Below, piece after piece: positions 128 to 45,849 of a DNA stretch of 64,000 bases (position 1 is the first letter of the stretch; each line of letters starts with the position of its first letter). The translations under genes and the position numbers were made by a program. The notes beneath the pieces were generated by a model. It was not told the DNA's origin and searched no databases. It saw only the letters and a list, made by a program, of their open reading frames with translations. The stretch spans positions 70,786 to 134,785 of the forward strand of contig DASYJF010000114.1 of assembly GCA_035996815.1 (NCBI GenBank). Reading direction: 5' to 3'. This stretch comes from Thermoanaerobaculia bacterium (GTDB lineage: Bacteria > Acidobacteriota > Thermoanaerobaculia > Gp7-AA8).

Positions 128-767
128 CGGCGAGAGACGGCTTGCGGATCTTTCCAGCGAAGATCTCTCCGGCTCCGTCGATCGAGACGGCGGATCGCCG
201 AAGCGCTGATCGACGAAACACGGTACGACGTGACTCCTGCAGACGAGCTCGGAGTGGACCTCACATCCGTTTCACGCCGCGCCTTGCGCTATCGCGCCGA
301 GCGCGAGGCCACATCGAACGCGCCACGCGTGCGTGAAGCAAAGGCGATCGAAACCACCTGGCTGTAGCGACGGCGCATGGACCTTCGACGGCACGACGCT
401 GTGATTCCTCCGCGAGATCGCGACCGCCCCGCCGGACCGGCCGATGCCGTTGGTGTTGCGGGTGAAGCGGGTAGCCAAACGGTCGAGAACGCTACCCGTC
501 TCGGCACGACGGTGACCGCACCCGTTCGCCGATCGCGTCGAAGATAAGTTTCCAAAGCGAGCTGATGCTTAGCTTGGAATCGGAACTTGAATCCGCTCCG
601 CGAGCCGGCGGCGCTTCAGCATGCGTGGAATGGATAGACGATCTCCGCCATTTCGAAGACGTTGTCGAAGTTGAACAAGGGGTACTATAACCCCTTAACA
701 ATCGATGAAACGCTCGCTCGCGGCCTATCGCTTGCACGGTAAGCCATTGCAATTTTGAAGGGGAACG

Positions 768-998
768 ATGGTACAGAATGAAACGGTGGACCGCCGTGCG
801 ATTATCCTTACGTTGATCCGAAAGGGAGGACGGGCGTGTGCTGCGGATATTGCGAATGACCTTCCGCAACCGATCGCGGCAAGCAAACTCGTGCCCGTCG
901 TGGAAGCTCTTGCGGACGAGGGCGTCATCGAGCGGGTTTCGGAGGACTCCGGCCGCAAGTATGACGAAACGCAGACGGTCTACGCCTTGAAGTCCTGA
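768..998 (+). CDS. small (76 aa) putative winged-helix DNA-binding protein
   Basis: ORF preceded by a GAAGGGGAA Shine-Dalgarno-like motif. Short helical basic protein. Function inferred only from composition. Confidence 0.4.
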   Translation: MVQNETVDRRAIILTLIRKGGRACAADIANDLPQPIAASKLVPVVEALADEGVIERVSEDSGRKYDETQTVYALKS

Positions 999-1063
999 AA
1001 TCGGACCTCGGCCGACGTTCTGCGTCCCTTCCTCCGACGAACCCGACATCAACGCGCAGATCT

Positions 1064-1909
1064 ATGAATGCCTTTACGTCTGCGCTCCAAACATTCGACG
1101 TCGCGGAGATCGCGACGGGACTTGCTGCCGTCGTTGTGGTTCTGGCAGGTCTGGTCCTGCGATCAACGAATAGCAGGCGAAGTGCAAGCGGTTTCGTCTG
1201 GCCTGCGTTGCTGTTATTCAAGGGTCGTATCAGTCTCTGGATCGTAATTAAGACAACATTGGCGTTTGCCCTTCTTCATGCGGCGCGGCTCCACGGATCC
1301 GCTCTGAGCGTCCAGTTTCTCCTTGCCCTATCTCTGACAGCCGCACCGGAAGTGATTGAAGCATTCATCCCGGAGATTCAGAACGAGAAGGTCGCTCAAT
1401 TCGTCTTTCTTGCAATGCAACGAACCAACTTCAGTGTCATTCAACTTCTGAATGCCGGCATCACTCGTATACGGGAGCATGCGAATTACGACTGGCAGAA
1501 CCGCCGCGGTCAATGGCAGTTTGGCGTGAGCTCCGAAGAAGTTGGAAGACGCATTCGCATTCTCTACGAACAAAACAAACGCGAAATCGCCAATTCGCTT
1601 CGAAAACCGGATCTGCTCGCGTTTGACGCCGGGGTCGTACCTGCGCAGAAGTTCTACTTACTCATCGATTTTCTCGGACCGAAATGGCTGAACGCCGCTT
1701 TGCGCGAGTTCTCTGCAGACCCGGCGACTCCGATAACCATTGCATGGGACGGGAGCGAGCGACGCAGAGCGCAGGTACGTCAAGGCCACCCGCGCAGACG
1801 CCCAATTGACGACGCGAAACTTTGCGGACTAGTCTCACGCGGTCAGGCGTTTCCAGCGTATAACGCGTCACCCGCTGCTTCGGGCAACAAACGGATGAAG
1901 AAGAGTTAG
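1064..1909 (+). CDS. hypothetical membrane protein (281 aa), lower GC than surroundings
   Basis: Long ORF with N-terminal hydrophobic helices and no recognisable domain. GC is visibly lower than the flanks. Confidence 0.5.
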   Translation: MNAFTSALQTFDVAEIATGLAAVVVVLAGLVLRSTNSRRSASGFVWPALLLFKGRISLWIVIKTTLAFALLHAARLHGSALSVQFLLALSLTAAPEVIEAFIPEIQNEKVAQFVFLAMQRTNFSVIQLLNAGITRIREHANYDWQNRRGQWQFGVSSEEVGRRIRILYEQNKREIANSLRKPDLLAFDAGVVPAQKFYLLIDFLGPKWLNAALREFSADPATPITIAWDGSERRRAQVRQGHPRRRPIDDAKLCGLVSRGQAFPAYNASPAASGNKRMKKS

Positions 1910-2057
1910 TACGCGCGCGAGCGACCGAGGCTGGCCTCGATCGCAAAACCGTTCGCCATCCGCCGTCCTGTCCGAAACTTGCATACACTCGCCGAAGCCC
2001 CGTTGATGGCGGATGACGATCTCCACGCGATGATCGAACACAAAGGAGTACACGAAC

Positions 2058-2534
2058 ATGACACCGAAAAACACGATTTGCCTCTGGTACGACAAAGACG
2101 CGGTTGACGCGGCACGCTTCTACGCCGCCACCTTCCCGGATAGTGAAGTGACCGCGGTTCATGAGGCGCCTGATGACTATCCCGGCGGGAAGAAGGGCGA
2201 TGTACTGACCGTGGAATTCACCGTTTTCGGCATTCCCTGCCTCGGTCTCAACGGTGGTCCGATGTTCAAGCACAGCGAGGCCTTTTCGTTCCAAATTGCG
2301 ACGAACGATCAGGAAGAGACGGACCGCTACTGGAATGCGATCGTCGGCAATGGAGGAGAGGAAAGCCAATGTGGTTGGTGCAAGGATCGCTGGGGCCTCT
2401 CCTGGCAGATCACTCCCCGCGTGCTGACCGACGCGCTCGCGGCTGGTGGCGATGAGGCAAAGCGTGCCTTCGAAGCGATGATGCCGATGAAGAAAATCGA
2501 CGTTGCCACCATCGAGGCCGCGCGCCGAGGCTGA
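2058..2534 (+). CDS. VOC/PhnB-like protein (3-demethylubiquinone-9 3-methyltransferase domain family, COG2764-type)
   Basis: N-terminal LWYDKDA...FY motif and length typical of PhnB-like glyoxalase-fold proteins. AAGGAG ribosome-binding site 8 nt upstream of the ATG. Confidence 0.8.
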   Translation: MTPKNTICLWYDKDAVDAARFYAATFPDSEVTAVHEAPDDYPGGKKGDVLTVEFTVFGIPCLGLNGGPMFKHSEAFSFQIATNDQEETDRYWNAIVGNGGEESQCGWCKDRWGLSWQITPRVLTDALAAGGDEAKRAFEAMMPMKKIDVATIEAARRG

Positions 2535-2538
2535 CGAT

Positions 2539-3486
2539 TCAGCGTCGGGCTGAGCCAGCCGCATTTCCCCGCGCGACTGCCCGAGGCGTTCCGAACACGA
2601 GGCCTGTCTCGATCTCGGATGGCTTGCCGTCGACTATGTACGGTTTGAGTCGCCACGCTCGAAGAGCAGAGATGATGGCTTCGGACTGATCGGGGAAGGC
2701 GCTGAGGAGATGGACGTGCTTCACCCGCCCTTCGCCGTCGATGGTCACGCGGACCGGGATCGTGTTGAAGCGGCGCGTCGCCAGGTAAGGTTCGGTCTTC
2801 TCGATGACGTTGTCGCCGTGCGCGTAACCCTTCACGCAAAGCGGCGCATCACTTTCCTTCGCCAGGGAGATGCCGCTCATCGCCCGCTCGGCCGCATCGA
2901 GCGCCGCCTTGTCGCGGCCGGTGAAAGTGAACGTCAAGGCGTGGCATCGCGCGTCGGTTGAAAGTACGCGCCAATGGAGTCCGACAATCGGCGCTCCGTA
3001 TGCGACACGATAAAACGTCCGGCTGGCGATCTTCACCTCTTCCGGTCCACGCTCGATTTCGTACTGCGGCACGACTCCTCGGCGAAGAGAGGCCATCAAC
3101 TCCCTGGCCGACTGGGCGGCATTCGCACTGAAGAAGAGGTCCTGCGCCGACACCAGCACGTGGGCTTTCACTCTCTGCGGCTCGCGGTCCCAGAAGGCGA
3201 ATTGCGTCAGGACGTAGCTGCCGCCGTCGGACGGTGGAGGCCCCGCCGGCTCTTCAGTCCAGCCGGCGGGGATTGGATACGACAGGTTGAAATACGCGTT
3301 GTTGTAGCGGTCACCGGCCACCTTCCCTTCCTCCGGCAGCGGCGTCACCGAGTCGCTCGTGCCCGGCGTCGCCCCTTTGACGAGGATCACGCCGTGCGGA
3401 ACCACCGGAACCGTTCCCGCATCGACCGGCAGGCCGATGCAGATCGCGAACAGCGAGGAGAGAGAGTGCCTGGTGAGTCGCCACAT
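2539..3486 (-). CDS. secreted protein with C-terminal TonB-C (energy transducer) domain
   Basis: Signal-peptide-like N-terminus. C-terminal RVTIDGEGRV...LRAWRLKPYIVDGKP...GLVFG resembles the TonB C-terminal domain. Confidence 0.7.
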   Translation of the reverse strand: MWRLTRHSLSSLFAICIGLPVDAGTVPVVPHGVILVKGATPGTSDSVTPLPEEGKVAGDRYNNAYFNLSYPIPAGWTEEPAGPPPSDGGSYVLTQFAFWDREPQRVKAHVLVSAQDLFFSANAAQSARELMASLRRGVVPQYEIERGPEEVKIASRTFYRVAYGAPIVGLHWRVLSTDARCHALTFTFTGRDKAALDAAERAMSGISLAKESDAPLCVKGYAHGDNVIEKTEPYLATRRFNTIPVRVTIDGEGRVKHVHLLSAFPDQSEAIISALRAWRLKPYIVDGKPSEIETGLVFGTPRAVARGNAAGSARR

Positions 3487-3499
3487 AGTTCTCCCTTAC

Positions 3500-4936
3500 T
3501 TACAGTGAGCGCAGGAAGTTCAAAAGGTCCTGCTTCTCCGTATTCGCCAGAGCATTGAAGTTGAGCACCGCGGTATTGGCCTCGGAGCCGGTCGAGGAAT
3601 GCTGATCGATGGCCTTGAGAAGGTCGGGGGTCCGGCCATCGTGCAGGAGGAAGATCCGCTTCCCAAGTCCCCACAGCGGCGCCGTGCGGAACTGGTCGCC
3701 CCCCGCCGTTCCTTGCGAGACGTTGTCTGCCAGCTTGGACCCCATGTGATGAATCTCCAGGTCGCTGAACAGGTTCATCTTCTGATTGTCAAGGCTGGGC
3801 GTGATCGACGACGAGAACGAAGGGAACACGTTGTGATGGCAGACCTCGCATCCGATCTTGTTGAAGAACTCCTCCCCTTTCTTGATCGAGTCTGTCCCGC
3901 CCGGCGTGTCCGGCGATCTCTCCGGCGGAGCCAGGAGACGCATGAACATTGCGAACTGCACGGAGTCGCTCAACGTATCGATGGAGCCGACGTTGAAGTT
4001 CGTATGGTCCTCGGGCGTCGCATTGAGCTTGCACGGATTGGGAAGTCCCAGGACCCTCTCCTCTTCGGGCGTGGGATGCTCCTGGGTGAACAGCTCGTTG
4101 CTCACGCCCTGCTCGACGTTGTAGGCCTCACCGGCAAAAAGCTCCAACGACTTGTTCTGGGCCTTCCAGCCGAAGCGGGCGATCGTGCCGTCGTTGCCGT
4201 TGTGGTTGAACGTTCCGGCGATGCCGAAAGAATTGCTGGCTACTGACGCCTGGTACGACAGAAGGTCGGTCTCCTCGATGTTCTCGACGAGACCCCCTCC
4301 GAATAACGGCGTCGGAATGCGGAAGATGACGTTGTTGTGTGCGACAGCCGAGGCAAAATCGGGCTGGGAAATCACGGACGTCGTGCAGGGACCGGCGTCA
4401 CTGCGCCCGGCGATGGTGAAGAGGTCCTCGACCCCGCCGTTCGGCTGGCTGGGGATGGGATTGCCGGCCGAATCGGTAAAAAAGATGAAGCGAGCCTCAC
4501 GCACAGGGCCGCTGAGGGTGACGAACGAAGGCGGCAAGTTGACCGCGCCGTCCGCACCCGCGTCGACGATCTGCGGATTGACCGCGGGGCTGGTGCCGCC
4601 GGTGGCGGGGAAAGCGTGGCAACGGGCGCAGCCCATTGCATTGAAACGGGGGCCGAGCCCCTTGCCTTTCTCGCCGCGGATCGTTCCGTTGACGGAGTCG
4701 ACCTCCTCGAAGCGGGTCTTTGCGTCGTTGAAGAAGTTCAGGATCGTGATGGGATTGTTCGCCGCCACCGAGGCGAGCGGCCCGCCCGCTCCGGGCGGAC
4801 CACCGCGAATGCCCGGATCGGACTGAGAGAACGCCTGGAGAGCAAACAACAAGACACCGAGGGTAAGGACCGCTGTAGTGCGCGATTTCACACAGACCTC
4901 CTTGAAGGGTTGACATCTACGACCAGCCTTGGACAC
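3500..4936 (-). CDS. DUF1111-family di-haem cytochrome c peroxidase-like protein (thiol oxidoreductase-like)
   Basis: Two CxxCH haem-binding motifs (CARCH, CEVCHH) about 230 aa apart, signal peptide, about 480 aa. This architecture is typical of DUF1111. Confidence 0.8.
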   Translation of the reverse strand: MSKAGRRCQPFKEVCVKSRTTAVLTLGVLLFALQAFSQSDPGIRGGPPGAGGPLASVAANNPITILNFFNDAKTRFEEVDSVNGTIRGEKGKGLGPRFNAMGCARCHAFPATGGTSPAVNPQIVDAGADGAVNLPPSFVTLSGPVREARFIFFTDSAGNPIPSQPNGGVEDLFTIAGRSDAGPCTTSVISQPDFASAVAHNNVIFRIPTPLFGGGLVENIEETDLLSYQASVASNSFGIAGTFNHNGNDGTIARFGWKAQNKSLELFAGEAYNVEQGVSNELFTQEHPTPEEERVLGLPNPCKLNATPEDHTNFNVGSIDTLSDSVQFAMFMRLLAPPERSPDTPGGTDSIKKGEEFFNKIGCEVCHHNVFPSFSSSITPSLDNQKMNLFSDLEIHHMGSKLADNVSQGTAGGDQFRTAPLWGLGKRIFLLHDGRTPDLLKAIDQHSSTGSEANTAVLNFNALANTEKQDLLNFLRSL

Positions 4937-5109
4937 GCGGAAACTTCACTGGACTGCCGATGACGGGGACACGAGCGCTCGATGAACCAAATGCGGATTC
5001 GGCGGTGTTCATATGGCGTGCCAGACGAATGGAGAGGCGGCCTTAAATATCGAGCTCGACCGGTAGCGTCGCGCGCTACCGGGAGGACGAATTCGAACTT
5101 CCGCTCTCG

Positions 5110-5514
5110 CTATTCGGCGGAGCGATCGAGGTAGGCTTTGATTCTGGACCAGTACTGATCGCGCCAGGCCTGTTCGGTCTCAGGGATCAGGTCCTTCGGA
5201 ACGCCGCGATGCACCAGCACGAGCTCGGTCCCGCCATCAGCCGTTGGCGTCAGCGTCACCGCGGCCATCGAGAAGACACCCTCGGGGAATCGGCGGTGGC
5301 GCCAGGCCTGAACGATGCGCCGTCCGGGGACGAGGTCGACGTTGATCCCGGTGACATCACTCTCACCGATGGAGAACGTCCCTCCAACCTTCCCGCTGAT
5401 GATCGCCCGCTTGCCAGTGAACGCGCTGTGCTTCCGCGAGTCAGCCAGCAGATCGTAAACGGTCGCCGGATCGGCTTTGAACTTCACGCGCTGCTTGATG
5501 GTCTTGCACATGGC
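5110..5514 (-). CDS. SRPBCC / AHSA1 (activator of Hsp90 ATPase homologue)-like domain protein
   Basis: Residues from MCKTIKQRVKFKADPATVYDLLADSRKHSAFTG resemble Aha1/SRPBCC. The longer ORF to 5685 is low-complexity and AT-rich, so the internal ATG was chosen. Confidence 0.65.
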   Translation of the reverse strand, partial: AMCKTIKQRVKFKADPATVYDLLADSRKHSAFTGKRAIISGKVGGTFSIGESDVTGINVDLVPGRRIVQAWRHRRFPEGVFSMAAVTLTPTADGGTELVLVHRGVPKDLIPETEQAWRDQYWSRIKAYLDRSAE

Positions 5515-6054
5515 GTGGAAAGGTACTCGTGACGATGACCTGCTCAGAATAAGGATACAAAACATTCGTCCTAATACCGCGCAGGTCGAGGCGGAACGGC
5601 TGCGACAGCGTATCTCGCGGCACCTCTTCAACAGCGCGCTCGCGTCAGGTCGCCATCGCTCACTACACCGGGCATCTTCAAGCACTCAGGCGTCGTGCTC
5701 TCGCTTGACTGCGTCTCGTGCGATGGCTCTCGCCAGATCACTGAAGATCACCGCGTGCAGGGGGTAAAGGAGATACCGTAGAGAGCGCCGGCGAGACCAC
5801 GCGGCGACGCTGTTCGATGAATGCCGCGCATCACTCCATCGCGTTTCTGCCTCATGGGCGTCATCGAGCGCTGCCGACACAGCGTCGCGATACTGGATCG
5901 GCACGATCTGCGGCATAGGGTGCGCGCCCGCACCGTGTCGGCAAGTACGGGCTCGACGATTCCTTCGTGAGCATCGCGGTCGGCATCCATCTGTCGAAAT
6001 CCTGCAACGGCCGGACGCGCCGTACGGGCGCGCCCGGCCTACTGCATGGTTACC

Positions 6055-6600
6055 TCAAAACTGGGTCGTGGGTACCGGCGACGGCGCCGGGACGTGCGGC
6101 GGATCCGCTACCGTCCGGTGCTTCCGTCCGAAGCGGTTTGCTTTCCGCATCACTGCGACATGCGGAAGCAGAGCCGCGTGAGCCGGTGAGCGCACCAGAC
6201 TCTTGCTCACAGCGTACGTGAGCAACGCCGCTTCGCCGAGACGGTTGCGCCGCGTCAGGTTCGCCGAGGTGACGCCGCGCAGCATGGACCGCAGCTCGTC
6301 TTCCACCTTCGACCACCGTGCGGTCGTCTCCGCCTCCTGCTGCAGCTCCTCGGGCGTTCTTCCGACCACGCTCAGCACCACCGGAGATGCGCCGATGGCG
6401 TTGATTGCGGCTTGCGCAAACTCCGGATGCACATTGGCGGCGGGTTGGATCGCCCTCGCATCCGCCGCCGGCAGCTGCACGAATTCCGGGATCTGCTGGC
6501 GCAGCACGCGGAGCTGCTCCACGATCGATTCCGGCGTCATTACCGGGTCCCCTGCCGCCGCGGCGGCGTTCGTTTCACTAACTGCATTTTCGTTAGACAT
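6055..6600 (-). CDS. hypothetical protein, paralogue A of a duplicated unknown family (see 9600..10076)
   Basis: Strong AGGAAAGGAG ribosome-binding site before MSNENAV. The protein aligns along its length with the 9600..10076 product (shared ...RWSxVEDELxSMLRGVxxANLxRR... block and basic C-terminus). Confidence 0.55.
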   Translation of the reverse strand: MSNENAVSETNAAAAAGDPVMTPESIVEQLRVLRQQIPEFVQLPAADARAIQPAANVHPEFAQAAINAIGASPVVLSVVGRTPEELQQEAETTARWSKVEDELRSMLRGVTSANLTRRNRLGEAALLTYAVSKSLVRSPAHAALLPHVAVMRKANRFGRKHRTVADPPHVPAPSPVPTTQF

Positions 6601-7014
6601 GATGAAACTCCTTTCCTGCCCCGAAGGGCAAATGGTTATGGGACGGCGCTCGGGCTGAGTGCGCAGCTCGGACGCCGTTCCGGGATGGAACGTCTGAGCG
6701 CAACGTCGCAAACCGTTCGCTCGCCTGCCCCCACAGGCCGCGGACCTCGGGGGTTGTTATGTGGGTATGAGGCTGGAGGAGCTAACGCTCAACTCCACTT
6801 GGATCGGGGTCCTTCGCGCCTTGACACAAGCTCGAAGGACTCAGTACCTCATTCGAGTAACGGCCATTTACCACCGCCGTCTCTGGCTCAGGATTCGAGA
6901 CCCCTTGACTCAAGGATCTGCCTTTGCCTAACACAACAATATAGCTTCGTGATCACGGGATGTCAAGGGGGGTAGACGCTTTGGTAGTGGGGCAGTTTGA
7001 TGTTACGGGTTAGA

Positions 7015-7209
7015 TCAATGGCGAAAGATGGCATTCGCTACGCCAACGAACGCCACAGCCGCAGCAAGAAGAGCTAAGCCCGCCGCCTCGGGATGCCCCG
7101 TCCAACTTGAGGAAGCCAAAGCAAGAGCGGCAATACCCGCAGCCAAGGCGCCAAGGACCGCGCCACCTCCAACAGTTCTCGCTCTCGATACGTTATCCGT
7201 CGAGCTCAT
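7015..7209 (-). CDS. possible small (64 aa) two-helix membrane protein
   Basis: MSSTDNV...GGGAVLGALAAGIAALALA...LALLAAAVAFVGVA is hydrophobic and Gly/Ala-rich. There is no homology support. Confidence 0.25.
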   Translation of the reverse strand: MSSTDNVSRARTVGGGAVLGALAAGIAALALASSSWTGHPEAAGLALLAAAVAFVGVANAIFRH

Positions 7210-7330
7210 GATGCTTCCGCCCCACGAACATCCTACGCCTGTTGAACCCGTGCCGCTTTGCACTCGTTATCTGGGCAAGTTTCGCCTCATTCCCGGCGCG
7301 CGTTGCCTCGCGAATGGCGACGCGTGGTCT

Positions 7331-7504
7331 CGATATCAGGAACGTTCGCCACGACATTGAAAAAAATCAGTTCGAGACTGAGAACGCGTGCCTCGATCAT
7401 GACGCCGTTGTCGCTTCGTATTGACGTGCGTTCATGATGGAACGGGCCGTTTTCACTGTCGAAGTGATTTTTTTTCAATGTCGTGGCGAACGTTCCTGAT
7501 ATCG
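7331..7504. repeat. MITE-like element: perfect 36-bp terminal inverted repeats (CGATATCAGGAACGTTCGCCACGACATTGAAAAAAA / reverse complement) flanking a 102-bp core
   Basis: 7331-7366 is the exact reverse complement of 7469-7504. The inner ends are A7 and T7 runs. Confidence 0.8.
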
Positions 7505-7595
7505 AGCTGCACGTTTCTGATAGGGAAGTGAACGTTTCTGATATCGAGCTGCACGCTTCTGATATGGAAGCGAACGTTCCCTATGTTGAAGCTCC
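7488..7595. repeat. about 2.5 tandem copies of a 42-bp unit (GAACGTTYCTGATATCGAGCTGCACGYTTCTGATAKGGAAGY) reusing the inverted-repeat-arm motif
   Basis: Direct repeats begin inside the right inverted repeat of the MITE-like element. Each unit contains an internal 21-bp sub-repeat and a GATATC palindrome. Confidence 0.75.
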
Positions 7596-7780
7596 ATGGC
7601 GCGTTCATGAAGCGAATTCCGAAGTGATCCCGTCGGCGCGTGAAAAGAGCGCTGCGAATCAGTCAAATCGACAGTCCGACGTCGCCCTCCAGAACGGATG
7701 CCTTCAGCTGCGGGCGGCCGACTTCGAGTCCCTGCCTCTGTCATACGCGTAAGTTAAAGATTAGACAGGGCCGAAACCCT

Positions 7781-7872
7781 TGGCTGGGGAGGATTGCACG
7801 TATTCGAACCGCAGCGCTCGCGGATGTGGCTTGGATCAAAAGTAGGTGGCCGAGGCTGGGCCAACCTGCGCT
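7781..7872 (-). other. degenerate tRNA 3'-end-like fragment (ends ...GGTTCGAATACGTGCAATCCTCCCCAGCCA)
   Basis: A T-loop-like GGTTCGA and a CCCAGCCA tail are similar to the adjacent tRNA-Gln 3' end. No complementary acceptor 5' strand is present, so it is not a functional tRNA. Confidence 0.4.
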
Positions 7873-7887
7873 GGCGGCCGTGCCGCC

Positions 7888-7961
7888 TGGCTGGGAGACA
7901 GGGAGTCGAACCCCGATTGAGCGGTTCAGAGCCGCTTGTCCTACCATTGAACGATCTCCCA
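7888..7961 (-). tRNA. tRNA-Gln (anticodon CUG), CCA encoded
   Basis: The reverse complement folds as a cloverleaf: acceptor TGGGAGA/TCTCCCA, discriminator G, anticodon loop CUCUGAA, T-arm CGGGG-TTCGACT-CCCTG, then CCA. Confidence 0.8.
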
Positions 7962-8052
7962 GTGATGGCGGGCGGTGGATGCTACACGGCGCTCAACGCC
8001 TCGGTCAATGTCCTCATTCCGTGCGGTCGCGGACGGAGCCGTCCGCCGTTTC

Positions 8053-8412
8053 ATGCGACAATCGCCGGGCGAGGATGAGTCTGTGTTACCCGAGGTTTTT
8101 GAGTGTCCGCAGTGCCAGCGGCAGTTTGTTTTTGAGCTCGTCGAGAGCGCCGACGACCGCTCCATCTACTGCCCGCAGTGCAAGCGCTACCTCGGCGAGA
8201 AGGACCTCAACTTCATCCTCATTTCCGAGATCGAGGAGCTGACCGAGCGCCTCCGCTTCGAGCGCGAACGCCTCGAAAAGGACGAAGCCCTCTACTCGAT
8301 GTCCGACTGCGATGCGGAGCTGAAACTGTATGGCACCGAGGTCCACACCGTCGTCAGCATTCTTCGCAAGGCCGTGGCGGAGCTGGAAGCGCTGAAAGAA
8401 CAGTATCGCTAG
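8053..8412 (+). CDS. zinc-ribbon protein (CPQC...CPQC) with C-terminal coiled coil
   Basis: Two CxxC pairs 24 residues apart followed by a charged helical tail. Start is uncertain (ATG 8053 or GTG 8083). Confidence 0.5.
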   Translation: MRQSPGEDESVLPEVFECPQCQRQFVFELVESADDRSIYCPQCKRYLGEKDLNFILISEIEELTERLRFERERLEKDEALYSMSDCDAELKLYGTEVHTVVSILRKAVAELEALKEQYR

Positions 8413-8427
8413 GCCGCGAGAGTCGTG

Positions 8428-9603
8428 TCACCACGCAAGCACCAAGTGCTTTGCCAGGTAGTACCAGAGGCTGGCGGACGTGATCAGGATGAACCACCTT
8501 GCGGGCGCGGATGACGGGATGATCAGCGCGGCGCTGACCAGGAACGCGTCGGCGAAGATGCGCAGGAAGCCGTAGTCCTCAATCCAGATCGTGTGCGGCA
8601 GGATGGAAAAGAGGGCCAGGTATCCGACCCAGGCCAGCCGCCACTCCAGCGGCGCGCGCGTCCGCCGCCACACCAGCACGATGGCGATGACGACGCCGGC
8701 CAGGAACAGACTCTCGAGGAAGTAGAGACGCTCTTGGTGATCGCGGCGCATGGACGCGGCGGCCAGGAACCGCGCGTACTCGACGAAGGGCAACGCGCGA
8801 TCGGGTGCTCCGGCCCGGAGCGGCGTGACGCCCCAACACGCGGCCAGGACGATTTGCCAGAGCGCGTAGGCCGCCATCGGAAGCGCGAACATGACGGCGT
8901 CGATGCGGCGCTCGCGGCGCAGAAGTCGGTCGGCCAGCCAGACGGCGGCCAGTGCTACGGCCAGCAGCAGCGTCGTTTCCCGCGTCAGCACCGCAGCCGT
9001 GAGCAGCAGCGCGGCCGTCACGTTGCGGCGCGAGGCGGCGGCCCAGATCGCGCCCATCGCGAACGCGGCGGCGGCGATCTCGGACAGATCGCGCGAAAAC
9101 GTCAGCACGAATCCGGGATAGAGCGGCACGATCACGCCCCACATCGCGTGCAATCCGAACTTCTTCGCGAATGCTCCGCCGAAAGCGGCCATCGCCGCGG
9201 CAGCGAGGATGTTGACGATCACGAGTAGCCACGGAATCCATTTCACGCGGCCCAGCGACAACATCCAGACGATGAACGGATAACCGATCCGTTGCTGCCG
9301 GTACGGAGGGTTATCAATCCGGATCCCGTGCGCCGCCTGCACGCGCGTGAACGGATTGATAGCCAGTCGGTAGAACCAGATTCCGTCGTAGCCGCCGATC
9401 TTCGGGATCACGGTCAGCCCGGGCGGCACTTTCGAGGCATCGACGTTTTGTCCGCCGGCGATGACGAAGAGGGAAACGTCGCCTCCTCGGGTTCTAAGCA
9501 GCAGAACGAAAAAGGCGATGTAGCAGATCGCGATCACGATCGCCGGGGTGAGCGGCGAACCGGGATTCGATCGATCTCGAAGAATCGGGCGCAGGCTCCT
9601 CAC
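8428..9603 (-). CDS. polytopic inner-membrane protein (about 10-12 TM), possibly a GT-C-like glycopolymer/cell-surface biogenesis protein
   Basis: 391-aa ORF with many hydrophobic helices. GTG start overlaps the upstream stop (GTGA). Function is inferred from topology only. Confidence 0.7.
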   Translation of the reverse strand: MRSLRPILRDRSNPGSPLTPAIVIAICYIAFFVLLLRTRGGDVSLFVIAGGQNVDASKVPPGLTVIPKIGGYDGIWFYRLAINPFTRVQAAHGIRIDNPPYRQQRIGYPFIVWMLSLGRVKWIPWLLVIVNILAAAAMAAFGGAFAKKFGLHAMWGVIVPLYPGFVLTFSRDLSEIAAAAFAMGAIWAAASRRNVTAALLLTAAVLTRETTLLLAVALAAVWLADRLLRRERRIDAVMFALPMAAYALWQIVLAACWGVTPLRAGAPDRALPFVEYARFLAAASMRRDHQERLYFLESLFLAGVVIAIVLVWRRTRAPLEWRLAWVGYLALFSILPHTIWIEDYGFLRIFADAFLVSAALIIPSSAPARWFILITSASLWYYLAKHLVLAW

Positions 9604-10076
9604 TTCGTCTTGCCGGCGGCCTTCCTGCCCTTGCCGCGGATGTGGTTTACCCGCTTCATCTCCGCGAGGTGCGGGAGCAGGTGTTGAAACTCCTTCTTCC
9701 GGACCAGTTGGCGAACGACGGCGTAGATCTGCAGAACGGCGGTGCCGACGGCGTGACGGCGCTTGAGGTTTGCAGCGCTCACGCCGCGAAGCATCGACAT
9801 TAGTTCATCTTCGACGGCGCTCCAACGCTGGGCATCGTCCCGTTGTTGCCAGAAGTCTTCGACCGGCGCGCCGATGACGCTCGGCATGCGCGGATCCGCG
9901 CCGCCGGTAATGAGAGCGGCTTCCACGAATTCGGAATTGAGATGTGCTACGCGCGTCATCGAACGCGTCTGGCGAATGGTCAACTGCTGGAACTTCGGGA
10001 TGCGCGCCCGCAGCCGGCGAAGCTCCTCCACCAGCTCCGCGGGTTCAATCGGAGTGACTTCGGGATCATCGCTCAT
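9600..10076 (-). CDS. hypothetical protein, paralogue B of the duplicated unknown family; translationally coupled to the downstream membrane protein
   Basis: Aligns with the 6055..6600 product. Its stop overlaps the start of the 8428..9603 gene by 4 bp. Confidence 0.6.
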   Translation of the reverse strand: MSDDPEVTPIEPAELVEELRRLRARIPKFQQLTIRQTRSMTRVAHLNSEFVEAALITGGADPRMPSVIGAPVEDFWQQRDDAQRWSAVEDELMSMLRGVSAANLKRRHAVGTAVLQIYAVVRQLVRKKEFQHLLPHLAEMKRVNHIRGKGRKAAGKTK

Positions 10077-10189
10077 GACTCATGGAAGCGCGGCCCGGCC
10101 ACGAAGTCAAGAAAGGCGTCCTCGAAATGAGCTTGCGAGCGTACAGCAATGACAAAAGACACCCCCGACAAGGCGATTCGCTCACGGTG

Positions 10190-10531
10190 TTGATGTCGCC
10201 GGCATCAACGCCATGTCCGCCGCTGCACATTTTGATGTTCTGGAACATCAATCGATAGAGCCAGACCTCCTCTGTTGATGCGGGCTACATCAACAGACCA
10301 GGACGCGGTTGACCATTTTGATGGATGCCTGCATCAACATAGGCAGGGGGTCTTCAGTACTTGATGTCGGCGACTATTCGTTTGCTGTCGAAGGCATCAA
10401 CGCAGGCCTCGCGTGATCACCAATTTGATGTCATGGACATCAACGGGCGCAGTCTTCACGTGTCTTTTGATGTCGCAAACATCAAATGGAGTGAAGTCTG
10501 CCAAAGTGCTGCGCACGAAGGATGTTTGATG
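10190..10531. promoter_or_regulatory. array of about 7.5 dyad-symmetric sites TTGATG-N7/8-CATCAA at about 43-bp periodicity in a divergent intergenic region
   Basis: Dyads at 10190-10208, 10232-10251, 10275-10293, 10318-10337, 10361-10400 (long spacer), 10425-10443 and 10467-10485, plus a half site at 10526. Centre-to-centre spacing is 42-43 bp, or 53 bp around the long-spacer site. Confidence 0.7.
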
Positions 10532-10824: not shown

Positions 10825-11358
10825 ATGGATCGCGCAATCGAAGAACGTGAGCGGCTGCTGATCGAGGCCGCACAGCAGGACCCGAAGCGGTTCGCGGAGT
10901 TGTACGAGGAGAACTTCGGGCGGGTGTGGGCGTTCGTGATCAGGCGGGTAGGTGAACGCTCGGTTGCGCAGGACATTACGTCCGAGGTGTTTCATCAGGC
11001 GCTGGCGAACGTGGGGCGATTCGAATGGCGCGGGCTGCCGTTCGCGGCGTGGCTGTATCGGATTGCGGCGAATGCGATCGCCGATCACTTTGCGAAATCG
11101 GCGCGCGAGCAGAGTACCGAGGCCGAGGTAACCGTACCGCCGCATGAGATCGAAGACATTGAGCGCCGCGCGTCGCTGTATCGCTTCGTCGATCGACTTC
11201 CGGCCGAGCAACGGCGCGTGCTGGTCATGCGGTTCGCCGAGGAACGAAGCATCCGCGAAATCGCATCGGTCATCGGACGGAGCGAAGGCGCGGTCAAACA
11301 ACTTCAATGGAGAGGCCTGCAGACGTTGCGGGCCCGAATGGGTACGAATCATGGCTGA
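10825..11358 (+). CDS. ECF-family RNA polymerase sigma factor (sigma-70 regions 2 and 4)
   Basis: ERERLLIEAAQQDP..FAELYEENFGRVWAFV (region 2) and a C-terminal EQRRVLVMRF..ERSIREIASVIGRSEGAVKQL helix-turn-helix (region 4). Confidence 0.9.
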   Translation: MDRAIEERERLLIEAAQQDPKRFAELYEENFGRVWAFVIRRVGERSVAQDITSEVFHQALANVGRFEWRGLPFAAWLYRIAANAIADHFAKSAREQSTEAEVTVPPHEIEDIERRASLYRFVDRLPAEQRRVLVMRFAEERSIREIASVIGRSEGAVKQLQWRGLQTLRARMGTNHG

Positions 11359-18788: not shown

Positions 18789-18796
18789 AGAAGTTC

Positions 18797-19038
18797 AGTG
18801 GACTAGTGGATCAGTAGATTAGTGGATTAGTAGGTCGGTGATCGGGCGATTGGTAGACGCTGAATCCGAGAAGAAGTCACGGGTAATACCCAATGGCCTT
18901 GCCTTAATTAGTTTTCGATGCTCGCGGCTGGAGCGCTGGCGTCTCGCCGGCTGGCTCGCCTGCGCAAACGCTTACGTTAAGGCCATTGCGGGTAATACCG
19001 AAGCTCCTGATCTACTAATCCACTAATCTACGAATCCA
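18797..19038. repeat. composite nested inverted-repeat structure: outer arms of repeat family D, inner 25-bp inverted repeats, central half copy of repeat A
   Basis: 18797-18840 is complementary to 19011-19038. 18881-18908 is approximately complementary to 18977-19000. 18931-18965 matches the repeat-A arm. Confidence 0.7.
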
Positions 19039-19865
19039 CTGAGTTTCTCGAGGATTTCGGGCTCGATGATCATCTCCGCGGCGATGGCGATGATGTCACG
19101 GTCATCAATCTTCACCGCGTCTTTTTCAGTCGTCACGATGGCCTCGGCGCCGGCGGTTGCGGCCGATGCTTTGATCGACGCGATGTCGGCGGCGGTGTAG
19201 CGATGATGGTCGCGAAAGCTTCTTGTTCCGATCACGTTCAGCCCGTTCGCGCGCAACGACGCGAAGAACTGTTCGTTGTCAGCGAGTCCGGCGAAGGCGA
19301 AGATGCGGCGTCCCGTCAATTCCTCCGGTACGACGAGTCGCAGGCGGCGTTGAATGACGAAATCGGCGTCCGCGAGCGCGGAGCGGCCTTCGCGCATGAT
19401 GCCGCCGCGCGTATCGATGACGACGTCGATGTCGCGGGCGAGCTGCAGGTGCTGGAAGCCGTCGTCGAGGATGAATACGTCGCACTCATTCACGTTTAAA
19501 AACTGAACAGCATTGTGATAACGCTTTGATCCGACAATTACGTCTATATTTTTCAGCTTGCTTTTCAACAGCACCGGTTCGTCGCCGAACTTCGCGGCAT
19601 CGAGCGACGTGACCAGGCCCGAAGCGTTGCCGGCGCGTCCGTAACCGCGCGTCAGCACGGCTACACGGAAGCCGCGCTTTTCGAGATAGCGGGCGATGGT
19701 GATGACCGCAGGCGTCTTCCCGGCGCCGCCGGCAGCGAGGTTGCCGACCGAGATCACCGGCCGCGGGAGGCGCTTGCTCTTCAAGATGCCGCGACGGTAC
19801 AGCGCGCGGCGCAGCCGGTTGACGCCGCGCCAGAGGAACTCGATCGGTTTGAGGAGGAGCGTCAC
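19023..19865 (-). CDS. lpxK: tetraacyldisaccharide 4'-kinase
   Basis: P-loop GNLAAGGAGKTP and LpxK-like sequence. GTG start overlaps the waaA stop (GTGA). Confidence 0.85.
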   Translation of the reverse strand: MTLLLKPIEFLWRGVNRLRRALYRRGILKSKRLPRPVISVGNLAAGGAGKTPAVITIARYLEKRGFRVAVLTRGYGRAGNASGLVTSLDAAKFGDEPVLLKSKLKNIDVIVGSKRYHNAVQFLNVNECDVFILDDGFQHLQLARDIDVVIDTRGGIMREGRSALADADFVIQRRLRLVVPEELTGRRIFAFAGLADNEQFFASLRANGLNVIGTRSFRDHHRYTAADIASIKASAATAGAEAIVTTEKDAVKIDDRDIIAIAAEMIIEPEILEKLSGFVD

Positions 19866-44095: not shown

Positions 44096-45211
44096 ATGAA
44101 CGTGAACGAACAGAAGATGAAGTGGGTCGGGGTTCTGACTTGGATCATCGTCGCGATCCCGAGCGTGCTCTGGCAGGCGCAGTACCGCTCGCTGGTCGGG
44201 CCGCGCGCGGCGCTGTTGTTCACCGCCTTCATCGTTTTCATCATCGCCTTCATTTTTGGTACGCGGCCGGGTTGCGGCACCCCGACGAAGATTTCGATGC
44301 TCGTCGTCGAAACGCTTGCGGCGTACGTCTGCATCTCGATGCAGCCCACCGGCTTTCAACCCGTACTGCTCGTCATCATCGCCGCGCAGCTCGGCGCCTA
44401 CCGGCCGCGCGTCGCCATCATCGCCATCGCGATCAACTGCATCTCCCTCGGCATCATCGTTTCGGCCACCGACGGTTCGCCGGTCATCTACGCGCTCGTC
44501 TACTTTGCGTTTTCACTCTTCTCGCTTTTCTCGATGCACGTCGCGCATTCGGAGATGGAGGCGCGGAAGTCGCTGGCCGAGGCCAATGCGGAGCTGCGCA
44601 TGACCACTGAGCTGCTCGAGATCAGCAGCCGTACCTCGGAACGCCTCCGCATCGCCCGCGATCTCCACGATCTCCTCGGACATCACCTCACGGCGCTGAG
44701 CCTCAATCTCGAAGTGGCCGGCCATCTCGCCTCGGGCGACGCGAAGGAGTCGATCGAGAAGAGCAAGTCGATTGCGAAGCACCTCCTCGCCGACGTTCGC
44801 GACGTCGTCAGCCGTCTTCGCAATGACGAACCGGTCGATCTGACGTCGTCGCTCGAATCATTGCGCGATGTGATCGTCGCGCCGTCGCTCCATCTCGACT
44901 TTCCGGGCGAGCTCGCCGTCGCCGATGCGAACATCGCGGAAGTGGCGCTGCGAACGGTGCAGGAAATCGTGACGAACGCGGTCCGCCACTCCGGGGCCCG
45001 CAATCTCTGGCTGAACCTCGGCACGGCCGATCACACTCTGTCGATCGATGCCCGCGACGACGGCGTCGGCGCCGACAACATCAGCTTCGGCAACGGCCTC
45101 CTCGGCCTTCGCGAGCGCGTGCAGCAGGCGCGCGGAACGTTCGAGGTGACGTCGATGCGCGGCCGCGGCTTCTCGCTCCACGTGACGCTTCCGCTCGGAG
45201 CCGCCGCGTGA
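44096..45211 (+). CDS. sensor histidine kinase, NarL-type (HisKA_3 + HATPase_c), polytopic N-terminal sensor
   Basis: H-box RIARDLHDLLGHHLTAL and ATPase N/G boxes (NAVRHSGA...GNGLLGLRERV). Confidence 0.85.
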   Translation: MNVNEQKMKWVGVLTWIIVAIPSVLWQAQYRSLVGPRAALLFTAFIVFIIAFIFGTRPGCGTPTKISMLVVETLAAYVCISMQPTGFQPVLLVIIAAQLGAYRPRVAIIAIAINCISLGIIVSATDGSPVIYALVYFAFSLFSLFSMHVAHSEMEARKSLAEANAELRMTTELLEISSRTSERLRIARDLHDLLGHHLTALSLNLEVAGHLASGDAKESIEKSKSIAKHLLADVRDVVSRLRNDEPVDLTSSLESLRDVIVAPSLHLDFPGELAVADANIAEVALRTVQEIVTNAVRHSGARNLWLNLGTADHTLSIDARDDGVGADNISFGNGLLGLRERVQQARGTFEVTSMRGRGFSLHVTLPLGAAA

Positions 45212-45849
45212 TCCGCATCTGCATCGTCGAAGATCAGACCATCGTCCGCCAGGGTCTGCGCAGCCTGCTCGCGCTCGTGCCCGACATCGAAGTCGTCGCC
45301 GAGGCCAGTGACGGCGAGGAAGCGGTCGAGGTGATCGAGCGCGAGAAGCCGGACGTCGTCCTGCTCGACCTGCGCATGCCGAAACTCGACGGCGTCGGCG
45401 TCCTGCGCACGCTGCGCGAACGCAACGCCGCGCGCCCGACGCTGATCCTGACGACGTTCGACGACGACGCGATTTTGTTCGAAGCCGTCCGCGCTGGCGC
45501 GAAAGGCTGGTTGCTGAAGGACGTTTCGCTCGAACGCCTCGCCGGCGCAATCCGCACGCTCGCCGACGGAGGCACCTGCATCGAACCGGTCATCACCGAA
45601 CGGATCATGCGCGCGCTGGAAAAGAGCGATTCGTCATTCGAATCCGCCGACCTCCCCGAGCCGCTCACCGACCGCGAACGAACCATCCTCCGCCTCCTCG
45701 CCGGCGGTTACAGCAATCACGAAATAGGAGAGTTGCTGAACATCACCGAGGGAACGGTTAAGAATCACATCTCGAATCTGCTGTCGAAGCTGGGCGTGCG
45801 CGATCGAACGCGCGCGGTGTTGCGGGCGATTGATCTAGGTGTGATTTAG
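45208..45849 (+). CDS. response regulator, NarL/LuxR family
   Basis: Receiver D54 context (VVLLDLRMP). C-terminal LuxR helix-turn-helix (LTDRERTILRLLAGGYSNHEIGELLNITEGTVKNHI). Confidence 0.9.
   Translation: MIRICIVEDQTIVRQGLRSLLALVPDIEVVAEASDGEEAVEVIEREKPDVVLLDLRMPKLDGVGVLRTLRERNAARPTLILTTFDDDAILFEAVRAGAKGWLLKDVSLERLAGAIRTLADGGTCIEPVITERIMRALEKSDSSFESADLPEPLTDRERTILRLLAGGYSNHEIGELLNITEGTVKNHISNLLSKLGVRDRTRAVLRAIDLGVI

Follow-up and report, generated by a model that had tools for sequence, protein, structure and literature searches.

A 21- to 22-Nucleotide Periodic Repeat Array Upstream of an Orphan Gene Family in Soil Bacteria

Gene A and the repeat array in the window

Gene A lies at positions 6055 to 6603, on the minus strand, of the 64-kb window, by which we mean the whole stretch of DNA that was analyzed. 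It encodes an orphan protein of 182 residues and is the family-wide partner of the repeat array described here. The AF2 model of the gene A product was all-helical, and no match to this predicted fold was found in the PDB or BFVD. The protein could not be assigned to a Pfam, NCBIfam, PHROG, or PADLOC family; neither its sequence nor its predicted fold was of the ribbon-helix-helix/ParB type or of any other recognizable DNA-binding fold or family. A tblastn search for homologues in 72,556 plasmids and 50,697 phages returned none. The gene A protein family comprises 782 clusters at 50% identity, and a short paralogue of gene A is designated gene B.

Upstream of gene A, a sigma-70-type promoter was located at 6938 to 6966 on the minus strand (TTGACA-17-TATATT, 11 of 12 matches). 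A −35 TTGAC with a −10-like hexamer 17 to 18 nt away occupied the same place in six other loci (L010, L014, L015, L017, L018, and L026). Between promoter and gene is a conserved, structured 5′ leader of ∼330 nt (6604 to 6937, minus strand), for which nucleotide identity to relatives was 80 to 82% where the gene A proteins were 77 to 82% identical. RNAalifold analysis of the leader from 21 loci yielded 54 base pairs, 26 of them with compensatory changes, and the leader matched no Rfam family. The original prediction, made from the DNA alone, had reported a dip in GC content and no convincing gene in this region. The dip is real (0.49 to 0.56 across 6750 to 7800 versus 0.60 to 0.69 in the flanks), and A7 and T8 runs are present. 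The second statement is largely correct, although 6604 to 6966 is the gene A promoter and leader. A doubtful 65-codon ORF (7015 to 7212, minus strand, GC3 of 0.53) lies between the promoter and the repeats.

The perfect inverted repeat that had been predicted around a 102-bp core was confirmed, with arms of 38 nt rather than 36 nt: positions 7329 to 7366 and 7469 to 7506 are 100% complementary and are separated by 102 nt. The left arm spans ∼1.8 units of the promoter-proximal (left) array and has an A7 run at its end. This array is short and degenerate in the window; its outer degenerate units (7300 to 7328, GCGTTGCCTCGCGAATGGCGACGCGTGGT) align with a conserved block, CCCGGCGCG..GCCTCGCGAAyGGCGA, at the start of the left array of L010, L014, L015, and L026. 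The core (7367 to 7468) holds the inner left and right units, which pair imperfectly (74%) about an apex at 7417/7418. It forms an imperfect palindrome (7360 to 7402 against 7432 to 7474, 74%) whose center, near 7417, is common with that of the arms, and the CGTAT at 7417 to 7421 is an apex motif conserved in the clade.

The last 19 nt of the right arm are the start of the first of five tandem 21-nt units that make up the distal (right) array (7488 to 7592). These units alternate between an a type and a b type (GAACGTTYCTGATATCGAGCT and GCACGYTTCTGATAKGGAAGY, respectively); a repeat search placed four of them 21 nt apart at 7488, 7509, 7530, and 7551, and the fifth, at 7572, is degenerate. Farther out, the degenerate outermost units (7593 to 7640, ..GCGTTCATGAAGCGAATTCCGAAGTGATCCCGTC) keep the 21-nt register of the array and are similar to the CATTCGCGAAGCAGCC-type units on the outside of the arrays in L014, L017, and L018. 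TRF reported a period of 21 (3.6 copies, 7490 to 7565) and a period of 42 (2.3 copies, 7486 to 7580, 88% matches, score of 162), which bears out the earlier description of 42-bp tandem repeats built from two 21-bp subrepeats. The further statement that every copy carries GATATC was wrong, as this hexamer occurs only at 7332, 7498, and 7540, in the left arm and the two a-type units. The core motif ACGYTYCTGATA occurs five times without mismatch in 7334 to 7564 and a sixth time, with a single mismatch, at 55233; the number expected from shuffles was 0.59, and none of 100 shuffles reached six.

A tRNA-Gln(CTG) gene (7888 to 7961, minus strand) has its 3′ end ∼295 nt from the last repeat unit, as originally noted. 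The proposal that this 3′ end once served as attB, with the repeats as arm-type sites, was not supported. A tRNA gene of any kind was nearby in only 1 of 43 further gene A loci, no second att copy was found (TGGCTGGGAGACAGGGA occurs once in the window, even with three mismatches allowed), and no integrase was found among the 10 ORFs scanned (492 to 10076). The adjacency of tRNA-Gln is incidental. The 3′ end of tRNA-Gln is nevertheless a genuine hot spot for integration. In L009, this site holds a 3.8-kb island bounded by a 17-nt direct repeat of the tRNA 3′ end, and the repeat array lies outside that island. A replication-origin remnant, the other suggestion, has no positive support, with no Rep-type gene, no DnaA box, and a chromosomal context.

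Conservation of the array across the gene A family

The same element is present upstream of gene A in L009, the gene A of which is 98% identical to that in the window. The L009 arms are complementary at 36 of 38 positions, with one C>T change per arm; the core is identical at 101 of 102 positions, and there are nine units instead of five, the extra units being two additional 43-nt double units. At 99% identity, the 102-nt core is about as conserved as the leader and more conserved than gene A itself (97.4%). A diverged quasi-palindrome of 21-nt units occupies the same place in L010, L014, L015, L017, L018, L021, L022, and L026, and L018, L022, and L026 have near-perfect in-register arms of their own. 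In the clade of the window, the units lie in two arrays of opposite orientation, which together make up a long quasi-palindrome. Every relative with sufficient upstream DNA had a homologous periodic array at the equivalent position.

Periodicity was assessed across 51 nonredundant gene A loci from soil metagenomes, likely of Thermoanaerobaculia. The best autocorrelation lag was 21/22, 41 to 44, or 63 to 67 in 47 of the 51 loci, compared with 17% of 418 control segments. TRF found 51 arrays in the zone 300 to 1,100 nt upstream of gene A (51.6 kb in total), all but one of them with a period of 20 to 22 or a multiple (50 of 51; the exception had a period of 27). Only six such arrays were found in the remaining 405 kb of the loci scanned by TRF, so that the upstream zone is ∼65-fold enriched. 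The arrays extend up to 17 to 18 copies (L044, L064, and L090). The near-identical L030, L032, and L045 carry 12.5, 13.7, and 14.7 copies; in lineages such as these, the array consists of 12 to 17 unidirectional, nonpalindromic units that have no pairing partner.

Unit sequences are lineage specific; at least 12 unit families were distinguished, and no universal core motif was found across them. A unit consists of a conserved block of 12 to 14 nt followed by a variable stretch of 7 to 9 nt. The units form 6-bp stem-loops in L044; in some lineages there are perfect palindromes without a loop (CTCTTGCAAGAG or CTCTTCGAAGAG), a form more in keeping with double-stranded DNA and a dimer than with a hairpin. 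Loci that keep the periodicity have gene A proteins as little as 46% identical. Array and gene A are inherited together. The period of the array persists while the sequence of its units is replaced, and the number of copies shifts rapidly.

Most arrays start ∼0 to 130 nt upstream of the −35 element. The window and L009 have ∼220 extra nt, including the doubtful small ORF, between array and promoter, and their arrays start ∼330 nt upstream of the −35 element, which is far for a classical operator. The paralogue A′ in the window (9600 to 10076) has its own seven TTGATG-N6-8-CATCAA palindromes, spaced 42 to 44 or 63 nt apart. A second large array with ∼21.5-nt periodicity (46056 to 46574) separates two convergent genes and has no gene A in its vicinity; thus, such arrays are not strictly tied to promoters. 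Gene callers repeatedly placed spurious ORFs on these arrays, and assemblies break there.

Alternative explanations for the array

Two explanations invoke mobility. The perfect 38-nt inverted repeats, the short noncoding core, and the AT-richer intergenic DNA near a tRNA gene had suggested a MITE or other nonautonomous transposable element with terminal inverted repeats of 36 to 38 bp. The arms are not termini, however, as homologous repeat units continue beyond them on both sides, and the flanks (GCGTGGT followed by CTCGATATC on the left and GATATCGAG followed by CTGCACG on the right) hold no direct repeat, reading GTGGT on one side and CTGCA on the other. No further copy of the arm turned up in the 64-kb window, among 185,579 species-representative genomes, or in collections of viruses, plasmids, and phages. 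The 19-mer common to both arms gave eight single matches, in unrelated phyla, in the same species genomes, which is close to our own estimate of the chance level, and all related matches among 99 loci fell in the gene A upstream zone. No relative showed an empty site. With a single copy in the window, no target-site duplication, and orthologous loci that keep the same structure by a conserved gene, the MITE reading is effectively refuted. The lack of other arm copies in all that was searched, together with the same structure at orthologous loci, is the outcome that the original prediction had named as grounds for its own rejection. It is also unlikely, though less so, that the array is the iteron or arm-site block of an integrated, formerly mobile module comprising the array, promoter, leader, and gene A, with or without gene B. 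The array would then be the replication origin or recombinase-loading region of a small module that was formerly a circle, and gene A or B would encode an initiator or accessory factor. The module does occur in at least four genomic contexts among close relatives. In L010, L024, and L015, it has a complete xerC-like integrase gene on one side and, on the other, a decayed remnant of the 3′ part of that gene (residues ∼167 to 297, 84% identical, beginning ∼110 to 220 nt beyond the array), as would be expected had a Campbell-type insertion taken place. In L018, as in the window, the array is directed toward the 3′ end of a tRNA gene; two paralogous modules lie within 4 kb in the window, and iteron plasmids show the same succession of iterons, promoter, and gene. 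However, the module encodes no Rep-type or winged-helix protein, gene A is absent from the plasmids and phages searched, and no DnaA box (≤1 mismatch) lies within 18 kb of the repeats. The setting is chromosomal, among lipopolysaccharide and housekeeping genes (lpxK, waaA, a lipid A acyltransferase gene, a fabH-like gene, and PepF in the window), and relatives are on contigs of 1.2 to 6.6 Mb. The rarity of tRNA genes at other loci and the lack of a second att copy and an integrase in the window also argue against it, and the xerC-SNF2 synteny is common to several species, so any insertion would be old. As to a partition centromere, no ParA, ParM, or TubZ NTPase gene adjoins gene A in the window or in annotated relatives.

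Three further explanations were considered. We regard neutrality as improbable; on this view, slippage and template switching would maintain a functionless, hypermutable tandem repeat or quasi-palindrome at a fragile site between genes. The copy number of the array does differ among nearly identical genomes (5 units in the window and 9 in L009; 12.5, 13.7, and 14.7 in the trio above), unit sequences drift freely, and the left array has decayed in the window. A neutral array would nevertheless be expected to vanish or shift its period; therefore, persistence of the periodicity at the same position in 47 of 51 loci, over gene A identities down to 46% and with ∼65-fold enrichment, counts against neutrality, as does a core better conserved than gene A between the window and L009. 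We are more doubtful still of a structured noncoding RNA or protein sponge, which would form a hairpin of ∼180 to 340 nt in the clade and runs of small stem-loops elsewhere, such as those of the L044 units. Both strands fold far below shuffles (−171.5 and −150.8 kcal/mol, z of approximately −10), but good folding is a property of any palindrome, and the 11 clade members showed no consistent strand preference (strand energy difference of −36 to +6 kcal/mol). Both C>T differences between the window and L009 arms are G·U compatible on the plus strand, the apex motif CGTAT is conserved, and the near-perfect arms of L018, L022, and L026 would also fit selection for a hairpin. In an ungapped scan (free end gaps let gapped alignments slide), however, in-register complementarity was barely above register-shifted complementarity (0.67 versus 0.63 in L017 and 0.57 versus 0.52 in L014), and the unidirectional units of L030, L032, and L045 have nothing to pair with. 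No promoter or terminator brackets the array, and none of the distal promoters in L030, L044, and L064 was convincing. In an Rfam search, only the tRNA reached the gathering score, with nothing credible at an E value of ≤5 in 6500 to 7900. The conserved property, a 21- to 22-nt period, belongs to the DNA helix. Finally, a gene encoding 7-residue repeats (such as ..NVSDIEL HVSDREV..) might be considered because 21 nt equals 7 codons, gene callers predicted ORFs over the homologous region in L009, L011, L014, and L015, and frames of 112 to 177 codons are open in L010, L014, and L015. The frames are broken in the window, L009, L017, and L018, though; L009 differs by two insertions of 43 nt each, a length not divisible by 3, and many lineages have periods of 22 or 43 nt. 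Frames are open on both strands because the units lack stop codons, callers picked different strands in different genomes, and GC3 was 0.38 to 0.62 compared with 0.72 to 0.85 in real genes. The coding reading is likewise effectively refuted.

A putative phased protein-binding array and its known counterparts

The reading that we prefer, with a probability of about one-half, is that positions 7300 to 7640 hold one local form of a conserved cis-acting element. The element would be a helically phased set of protein-binding sites, akin to iterons or operators, with the gene A promoter as its target. Each unit would be a binding site with ∼12 to 14 conserved bp, and the two-turn spacing would align all of these putative sites along the same helical face. 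On them, a sequence-specific protein may load cooperatively and control transcription from the gene A promoter in the manner of operators, enhancers, or iterons. Because the unit sequences are lineage and paralogue specific, the binder probably coevolves in cis, and the products of gene A and gene B are the obvious candidates. The perfect 38-nt arms would be the in-register part of two inverted arrays, recently homogenized, perhaps, by intramolecular template switching or gene conversion between the arms of the quasi-palindrome, and so would not be transposon ends. As a description, the term “iteron-like” in the original prediction survives: the array is phased, tandem, lineage specific, spaced by about two helical turns, and upstream of a promoter.

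Known arrays resemble it to various degrees. On Pptx, BvgA~P binds as six dimers, 22 bp apart on a single face of the helix, and the final dimer adjoins the −35 element (PMC7250471). The BvgA~P arrays of Pfha and Pptx have a two-turn 22-bp spacing on one face and run upstream from −35; single sites in them are weak or divergent and are filled cooperatively (PMC7250471). The gene A arrays would resemble them in this geometry and mode of occupancy. They differ in that the known cases have 3 to 6 sites compared with up to 18 here and in that the window array is ∼330 bp from the −35 element. Helical-turn spacing is found in the gene A arrays, and proximity to −35 is found in most relatives, though not in the window or L009. 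In the parC site of plasmid R1, as described, the iterons to which ParR binds lie in two sets of five, around the par promoter (PMC2241845). Like the gene A arrays, partition sites such as parC and sopC are long regular arrays with helical-phase spacing, next to or overlapping a promoter. They are bound cooperatively by a small cis-encoded protein, whereas such binding is our proposal for the gene A array. The sopC site of F has 12 repeats of 43 bp, each with a short inverted repeat, and this length matches the 42- to 43-nt superperiod seen here in the a/b units of the window, the A′ palindromes, and the array at 46 kb. In contrast to parC and sopC, the gene A array has no adjacent ParA, ParM, or TubZ NTPase gene.

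The iterons of theta plasmids include the seven 22-bp repeats of the R6K gamma origin, the 17-mers at 22-bp spacing of RK2 oriV, the four 22-bp repeats of pPS10, and the 19-mers of P1 and F. They too are tandem direct repeats with an approximately two-turn period directly upstream of the promoter of the adjacent gene, often with an inverted partial copy nearby; their copy number varies, and their sequences are replicon specific and coevolve with the binder. The gene A locus differs in having no Rep_3/winged-helix initiator and in having a 330-nt structured leader between promoter and gene, and a search near the repeats found no DnaA box or recognizable unwinding element; its arrays are chromosomal, with more than one module per genome and up to 18 copies. 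MITEs and REPIN/BIME elements share inverted repeats, the potential for long hairpins, and a location in intergenic noncoding DNA. The window element, in contrast, is not dispersed or multicopy, lacks a target-site duplication and empty sites, is inherited with one gene family, and has its inverted repeat internal to a periodic array. Intramolecular template switching is the process of quasi-palindrome correction, which can account for the conversion of imperfect inverted arrays to a perfect 38-nt repeat in one lineage. It is a mutational process and not a function, and it may have acted on the window arms.

A bolder proposal, which we put forward tentatively as possible though rather unlikely, is that gene A, with gene B, and the array make up an undescribed, self-contained chromosomal “iteron-like” module whose small all-helical protein, of a new fold family, polymerizes on its own array. 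This lineage-specific array, of as many as 18 repeats of two helical turns each, would precede the promoter and structured leader RNA of the module, and protein and array would coevolve as Rep-iteron or ParR-parC pairs do. The module might serve as an autoregulatory nucleoprotein switch of a new kind, or it might be a mini-replicon or segregation unit that Acidobacteriota have domesticated.

A literature search found no description of these arrays. What began as an odd palindrome near a tRNA gene has become a family-wide rule: the orphan gene A family is almost always preceded by a periodic, fast-evolving array, a conserved promoter, and a structured 330-nt leader. Its hosts are abundant and poorly studied soil bacteria, probably Thermoanaerobaculia (Acidobacteriota). 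Long arrays of two-turn-spaced sites are known mainly from plasmid origins and centromeres; if they are a stable feature of a chromosomal gene, they would provide a tractable system for studying cooperative protein-DNA assembly and the coevolution of a protein with its sites, and the link to the array would offer a handle on the function of this orphan family.

Repeat structure upstream of gene A

A repeat search of the window identified a 38-nt inverted repeat (7329-7366 and 7469-7506) with 100% complementarity and a 102-nt spacer. The original prediction of perfect arms around a 102-bp core was therefore upheld, except that the arms are 38 nt rather than 36 nt in length. The core was itself self-complementary at 74% (7360-7402 with 7432-7474) and shared its center with the arms. 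Tandem repeats detected by TRF at 7486-7580 had periods of 21 (3.6 copies) and 42 (2.3 copies; 88% matches, score of 162), in agreement with the predicted 42-bp unit composed of two 21-bp subrepeats. In the 21-nt register, five units started at 7488, 7509, 7530, 7551, and 7572, of which the fifth was degenerate. Five exact occurrences of the 12-nt core sequence of the unit, ACGYTYCTGATA, lay inside 7334-7564, and one more, with one mismatch, at 55233 (six matches found, 0.59 expected; 0 of 100 shuffles reached six). GATATC, thought to be carried by every copy, was present only at 7332, 7498, and 7540, while the predicted dip in GC content was observed (0.49 to 0.56 across 6750-7800).

The gene nearest to the repeats, gene A (6055-6603, minus strand), encodes a 182-residue hypothetical protein; searches of Pfam, NCBIfam, PHROGs, and PADLOC yielded no match. 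Homologues were recovered from soil metagenomes, the few named ones belonging to Thermoanaerobaculia MAGs. Clustering at 50% identity divides the family into 782 clusters, and every member is a small stand-alone protein. The all-helical AlphaFold2 model (pLDDT of 82) contained one helix of 53 residues as well as a disordered tail of basic character; it gave no fold match in PDB or BFVD and no sequence-profile match in PDB. In many loci gene A is directly followed by gene B (126 residues; e.g., L010, 6620-7000), a distant paralogue of its C-terminal half with a common DPEHA-LIPHV-MR motif; neither the window nor L009 nor L014 has gene B.

A near-consensus sigma-70 promoter for gene A was predicted at 6966-6938 (minus strand; TTGACA-17-TATATT), and relatives have a -35 TTGAC and a -10-like hexamer 17 to 18 nt away at the same alignment position. 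The leader of ∼330 nt between promoter and ATG (6604-6937, minus strand) is as conserved as coding sequence (80 to 82% nucleotide identity across species and 99% to L009). Folding of 21 loci yielded 54 consensus pairs, 26 of them with compensatory changes, and the leader ends in a UGCCC-UUCG-GGGCA hairpin immediately before the ribosome-binding site. Since it matched no Rfam family, the leader is a candidate new cis-regulatory RNA. In most loci the array starts ∼0 to 130 nt upstream of the -35 element. The window and L009 have an extra 220 nt between promoter and array; the window array, besides lying farther from the promoter, has partly decayed. Within this insert is a 65-codon ORF (7015-7212, minus strand), absent from other clade members, whose predicted product is small and has two hydrophobic helices. 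Its low GC3 (0.53) and its differences from L009 (about 8 substitutions, 5 of them nonsynonymous) make it a doubtful gene.

A periodic array is inherited with gene A

The contig of the closest relative, L009 (gene A protein 98% identical), aligned with window 5970-7718 at 91% identity in gapped blastn and contained the same element. By segment, identities were 97.4% (gene A), 99.1% (leader), 99.0% (102-nt core), and 93% (tandem units). The arms of L009 match at 36 of 38 positions because each carries one C>T change, and L009 has nine units versus five in the window, a difference made up of two 43-nt insertions.

A more distant set of loci (L010/L011, L014, L015/L016, L017, and L018/L019; gene A 77 to 82% identical) resembled the window over a stretch that begins immediately beyond the gene A stop codon and extends to about 6930-6970 (80 to 82% nucleotide similarity), followed by weaker matches to 7283-7571. 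The upstream regions of all these loci share one architecture: a left array of ∼21-nt units (GCCTCGAnATTGAAAACGnnn), a center with a conserved CGTAT(T/C) motif, and a right array of reverse-complement units (CGAAGCnnnCGTTTTnAATnT). Window 7300-7640 is this structure, with a short, irregular left half-array and a right half-array of ∼10 units, and the perfect 38-nt arms are the stretch over which in-register left and right units now have the same sequence. Other loci have in-register near-perfect stretches of their own with different sequences (41 nt with ≤2 mismatches in L018, 33 nt in L022, and 28 nt in L026). Overall, complementarity in register was only a little above that in registers shifted by one unit (0.67 versus 0.63 in L017; 0.57 versus 0.52 in L014).

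A metagenome scan with a 30-sequence gene A alignment yielded 80 further loci. The zone from 300 to 1,100 nt upstream of gene A added up to 51.6 kb, in which TRF detected 51 arrays; 50 of these had a period of 20 to 22, 42 to 44, 63 to 66, 84 to 85, 127 to 129, or 151, and one had a period of 27. Outside this zone, six arrays of period 20 to 22 were present in the other 405 kb of these loci, three of them just beyond the zone limits and still upstream of gene A, and the enrichment in the upstream zone was roughly 65-fold. In an alignment-free test, the lag from 8 to 69 with the highest self-match was determined for the upstream zone of 51 nonredundant loci and, as controls, for 418 segments of these loci. 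Lags of 21 or 22 scored highest in 27 loci, 41 to 44 in 14, and 63 to 67 in 6 (47 of 51 loci); best lags of the controls were spread evenly over multiples of three, with 17% in that lag set (1.7% at z ≥ 3.5). Some arrays were long and highly regular; these included 18 units of GAGTCGTTCGCAATCGACTCA (L044), ∼17 units of a 22-mer built on CTCTTGCAAGAG or CTCTTCGAAGAG (L064), and 14 to 17 unidirectional units of CGTTTGACATTAGCGGCGCGC (L030). At least a dozen unit families were distinguished, linked to one another by chain-like similarity, and no universal core was found among the families compared while the period was kept; thus, position and period are conserved rather than sequence. These results show that gene A and a 21- to 22-bp-periodic array upstream of its promoter are inherited together and that the sequence and copy number of the array turn over rapidly.

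Mobile, coding, and RNA alternatives

The element had been read as a MITE or as the remains of an integrative element that used the tRNA-Gln 3' end as attB. Arm copies elsewhere and target-site duplications were sought, and none were found in the sequences covered. In the 64-kb window, which represents the source genome in these searches, an 18-mer common to the arms and one of the two alternating unit types was confined to the array site, and no target-site duplication was present in the flanks. Neither blastn of 7280-7640 against 72,556 plasmids and 50,697 phage records nor two IMG/VR pattern searches (iteron pair and arm) gave a match. When 185,579 species-representative genomes were searched with a 19-mer from both arms and the same units, eight unrelated genomes matched, among them members of Bacteroidota, Nitrospirota, and Bacillota and an archaeon. 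None matched twice, and we estimate eight matches to be about the chance number for a pattern of such length. No relative with an empty site was found; L009 and the more distant relatives carry the same architecture upstream of gene A. The MITE reading was rejected, and we consider the element a vertically inherited, gene A-linked feature (probability of roughly 0.9). The tRNA-Gln(CTG) gene (7888-7961, minus strand) is a separate matter. In L009, a 3.8-kb island (618-4419) encoding an AraC-type regulator, a short-chain dehydrogenase, an aldo-keto reductase, and a 98-residue ORF, in which no integrase was found, lies between tRNA-Gln and the array, inserted at the tRNA 3' end. It is flanked by a 17-nt direct repeat, TGGCTGGGAGACAGGGA, equal to the tRNA 3' end; therefore, this end is a genuine integration site, as proposed, but the array lies outside the island and is present with or without it. 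The window is the empty site for this island; window 7723-7790 resembles its tRNA-proximal end (74% identity) and carries a degenerate att-like TTGGCTGGGGAGGA, with the tRNA copy at 7888-7904. Among 43 further gene A loci, one contained a tRNA; in L018, tRNA-Val lies ∼50 nt from the array. That array, gene A, and gene B together form an integrated mini-replicon or element is unlikely but is kept alive by two observations: genomic contexts of the module vary among relatives, and in L010, L024, and L015 the block lies between a full-length xerC-like integrase gene and a degraded copy of that gene's 3' region (residues ∼167 to 297, 84% identical) that starts ∼110 to 220 nt beyond the array, an arrangement resembling what an old Campbell-type insertion into the 3' portion of this gene would leave. 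However, neither a Rep-like gene nor a nearby DnaA box was found, gene A has no homologue in the 72,556 plasmids or 50,697 phages, and the contexts are clearly chromosomal. The frameshifted fragment and the full tyrosine recombinase gene have the same orientation (L010, 4618-5011 and 7106-8008) and also occur in L024, L015/L016, and L040.

Gene callers placed ORFs across the array in L009, L011, L014, and L015, on differing strands. Stop-free frames exist on both strands solely because the units lack stop codons, and in the window, L009, L017, and L018 these frames are interrupted. Indels between array versions are 43 nt, many lineages have 22- or 43-nt periods, and GC3 of the array frames is 0.38 to 0.62 versus 0.72 to 0.85 for real window genes; a coding function was rejected. 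The array also folds into a long hairpin on both strands (z of about −10), but any palindrome must do so. There was no consistent strand advantage across 11 clade members, unidirectional arrays such as that of L030 are unable to form such hairpins, loopless perfect palindromes such as CTCTTGCAAGAG are more in keeping with a dimer and double-stranded DNA than with a stem-loop in RNA, and no promoter/terminator pair bracketing the arrays was found. An RNA function is therefore very improbable.

Related arrays and a possible mechanism

The window contains a paralogue, A' (9600-10076, minus strand; 45% identical to gene A), preceded at 10188-10487 by seven TTGATG-N6-8-CATCAA palindromes spaced by 42, 43, 43, 44, 63, and 42 nt. 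These have the same two- or four-turn phasing as the gene A arrays with a different site, and a divergent sigma-70-family gene (about 10826-11358) shares this region. The gene downstream of A' (8428-9603, minus strand), which overlaps its stop codon, matched the NCBIfam AZOBR_p60025 family cell surface glycopolymer formation protein (148.4 bits, just below the 150-bit cutoff), the only functional hint near either paralogue. Other simple repeats in the window are CACTGAC (13.6 copies, 52173-52267) with an adjoining AGTGGTTAGTGGCC-type run (52059-52155) and two 16-nt repeats ∼200 nt apart (18795-18833 and 19010-19040) near lipid A acyltransferase and lpxK genes.

The two-turn period of the gene A arrays would place the conserved 12- to 14-bp block of every unit on one helix face. 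Plasmid Rep proteins, as cooperative DNA binders, use such one-face geometry on iterons. The perfect arms would be best explained by template-switch homogenization, a known mutational process, between inverted arrays. A putative binder, for which gene A or gene B is a candidate, probably coevolves in cis, because unit sequences are lineage and paralogue specific. The cooperative binder ParR uses the one-face geometry on parC (PMC2241845). BvgA~P is another such binder: six of its dimers are placed at 22-bp spacing, reaching the -35 element of Pptx (PMC7250471), and the 21- to 22-bp unit spacing of the gene A arrays is similar. Judged from sequence, this combination of a phased array, a cis-evolving binder, and template-switched arms has about an even chance of being correct.

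A second, much larger array (46056-46574) is built from a 43-nt unit repeated 12 times (93% identity; periodicity of 21.5 nt), with alternating 22- and 21-nt subunits and palindromic cores GTCACACAGTGTGTTAC and CCCGCGGTGCGGG; spurious ORFs cross it. It lies between the 3' ends of an operon encoding a HisKA_3 kinase and a NarL/LuxR-type response regulator (44096-45849) and a convergent TonB_C/SH3 gene (46695-47690), and gene A was not found near it. Because this array is not promoter linked, the array class may have roles besides promoter control.
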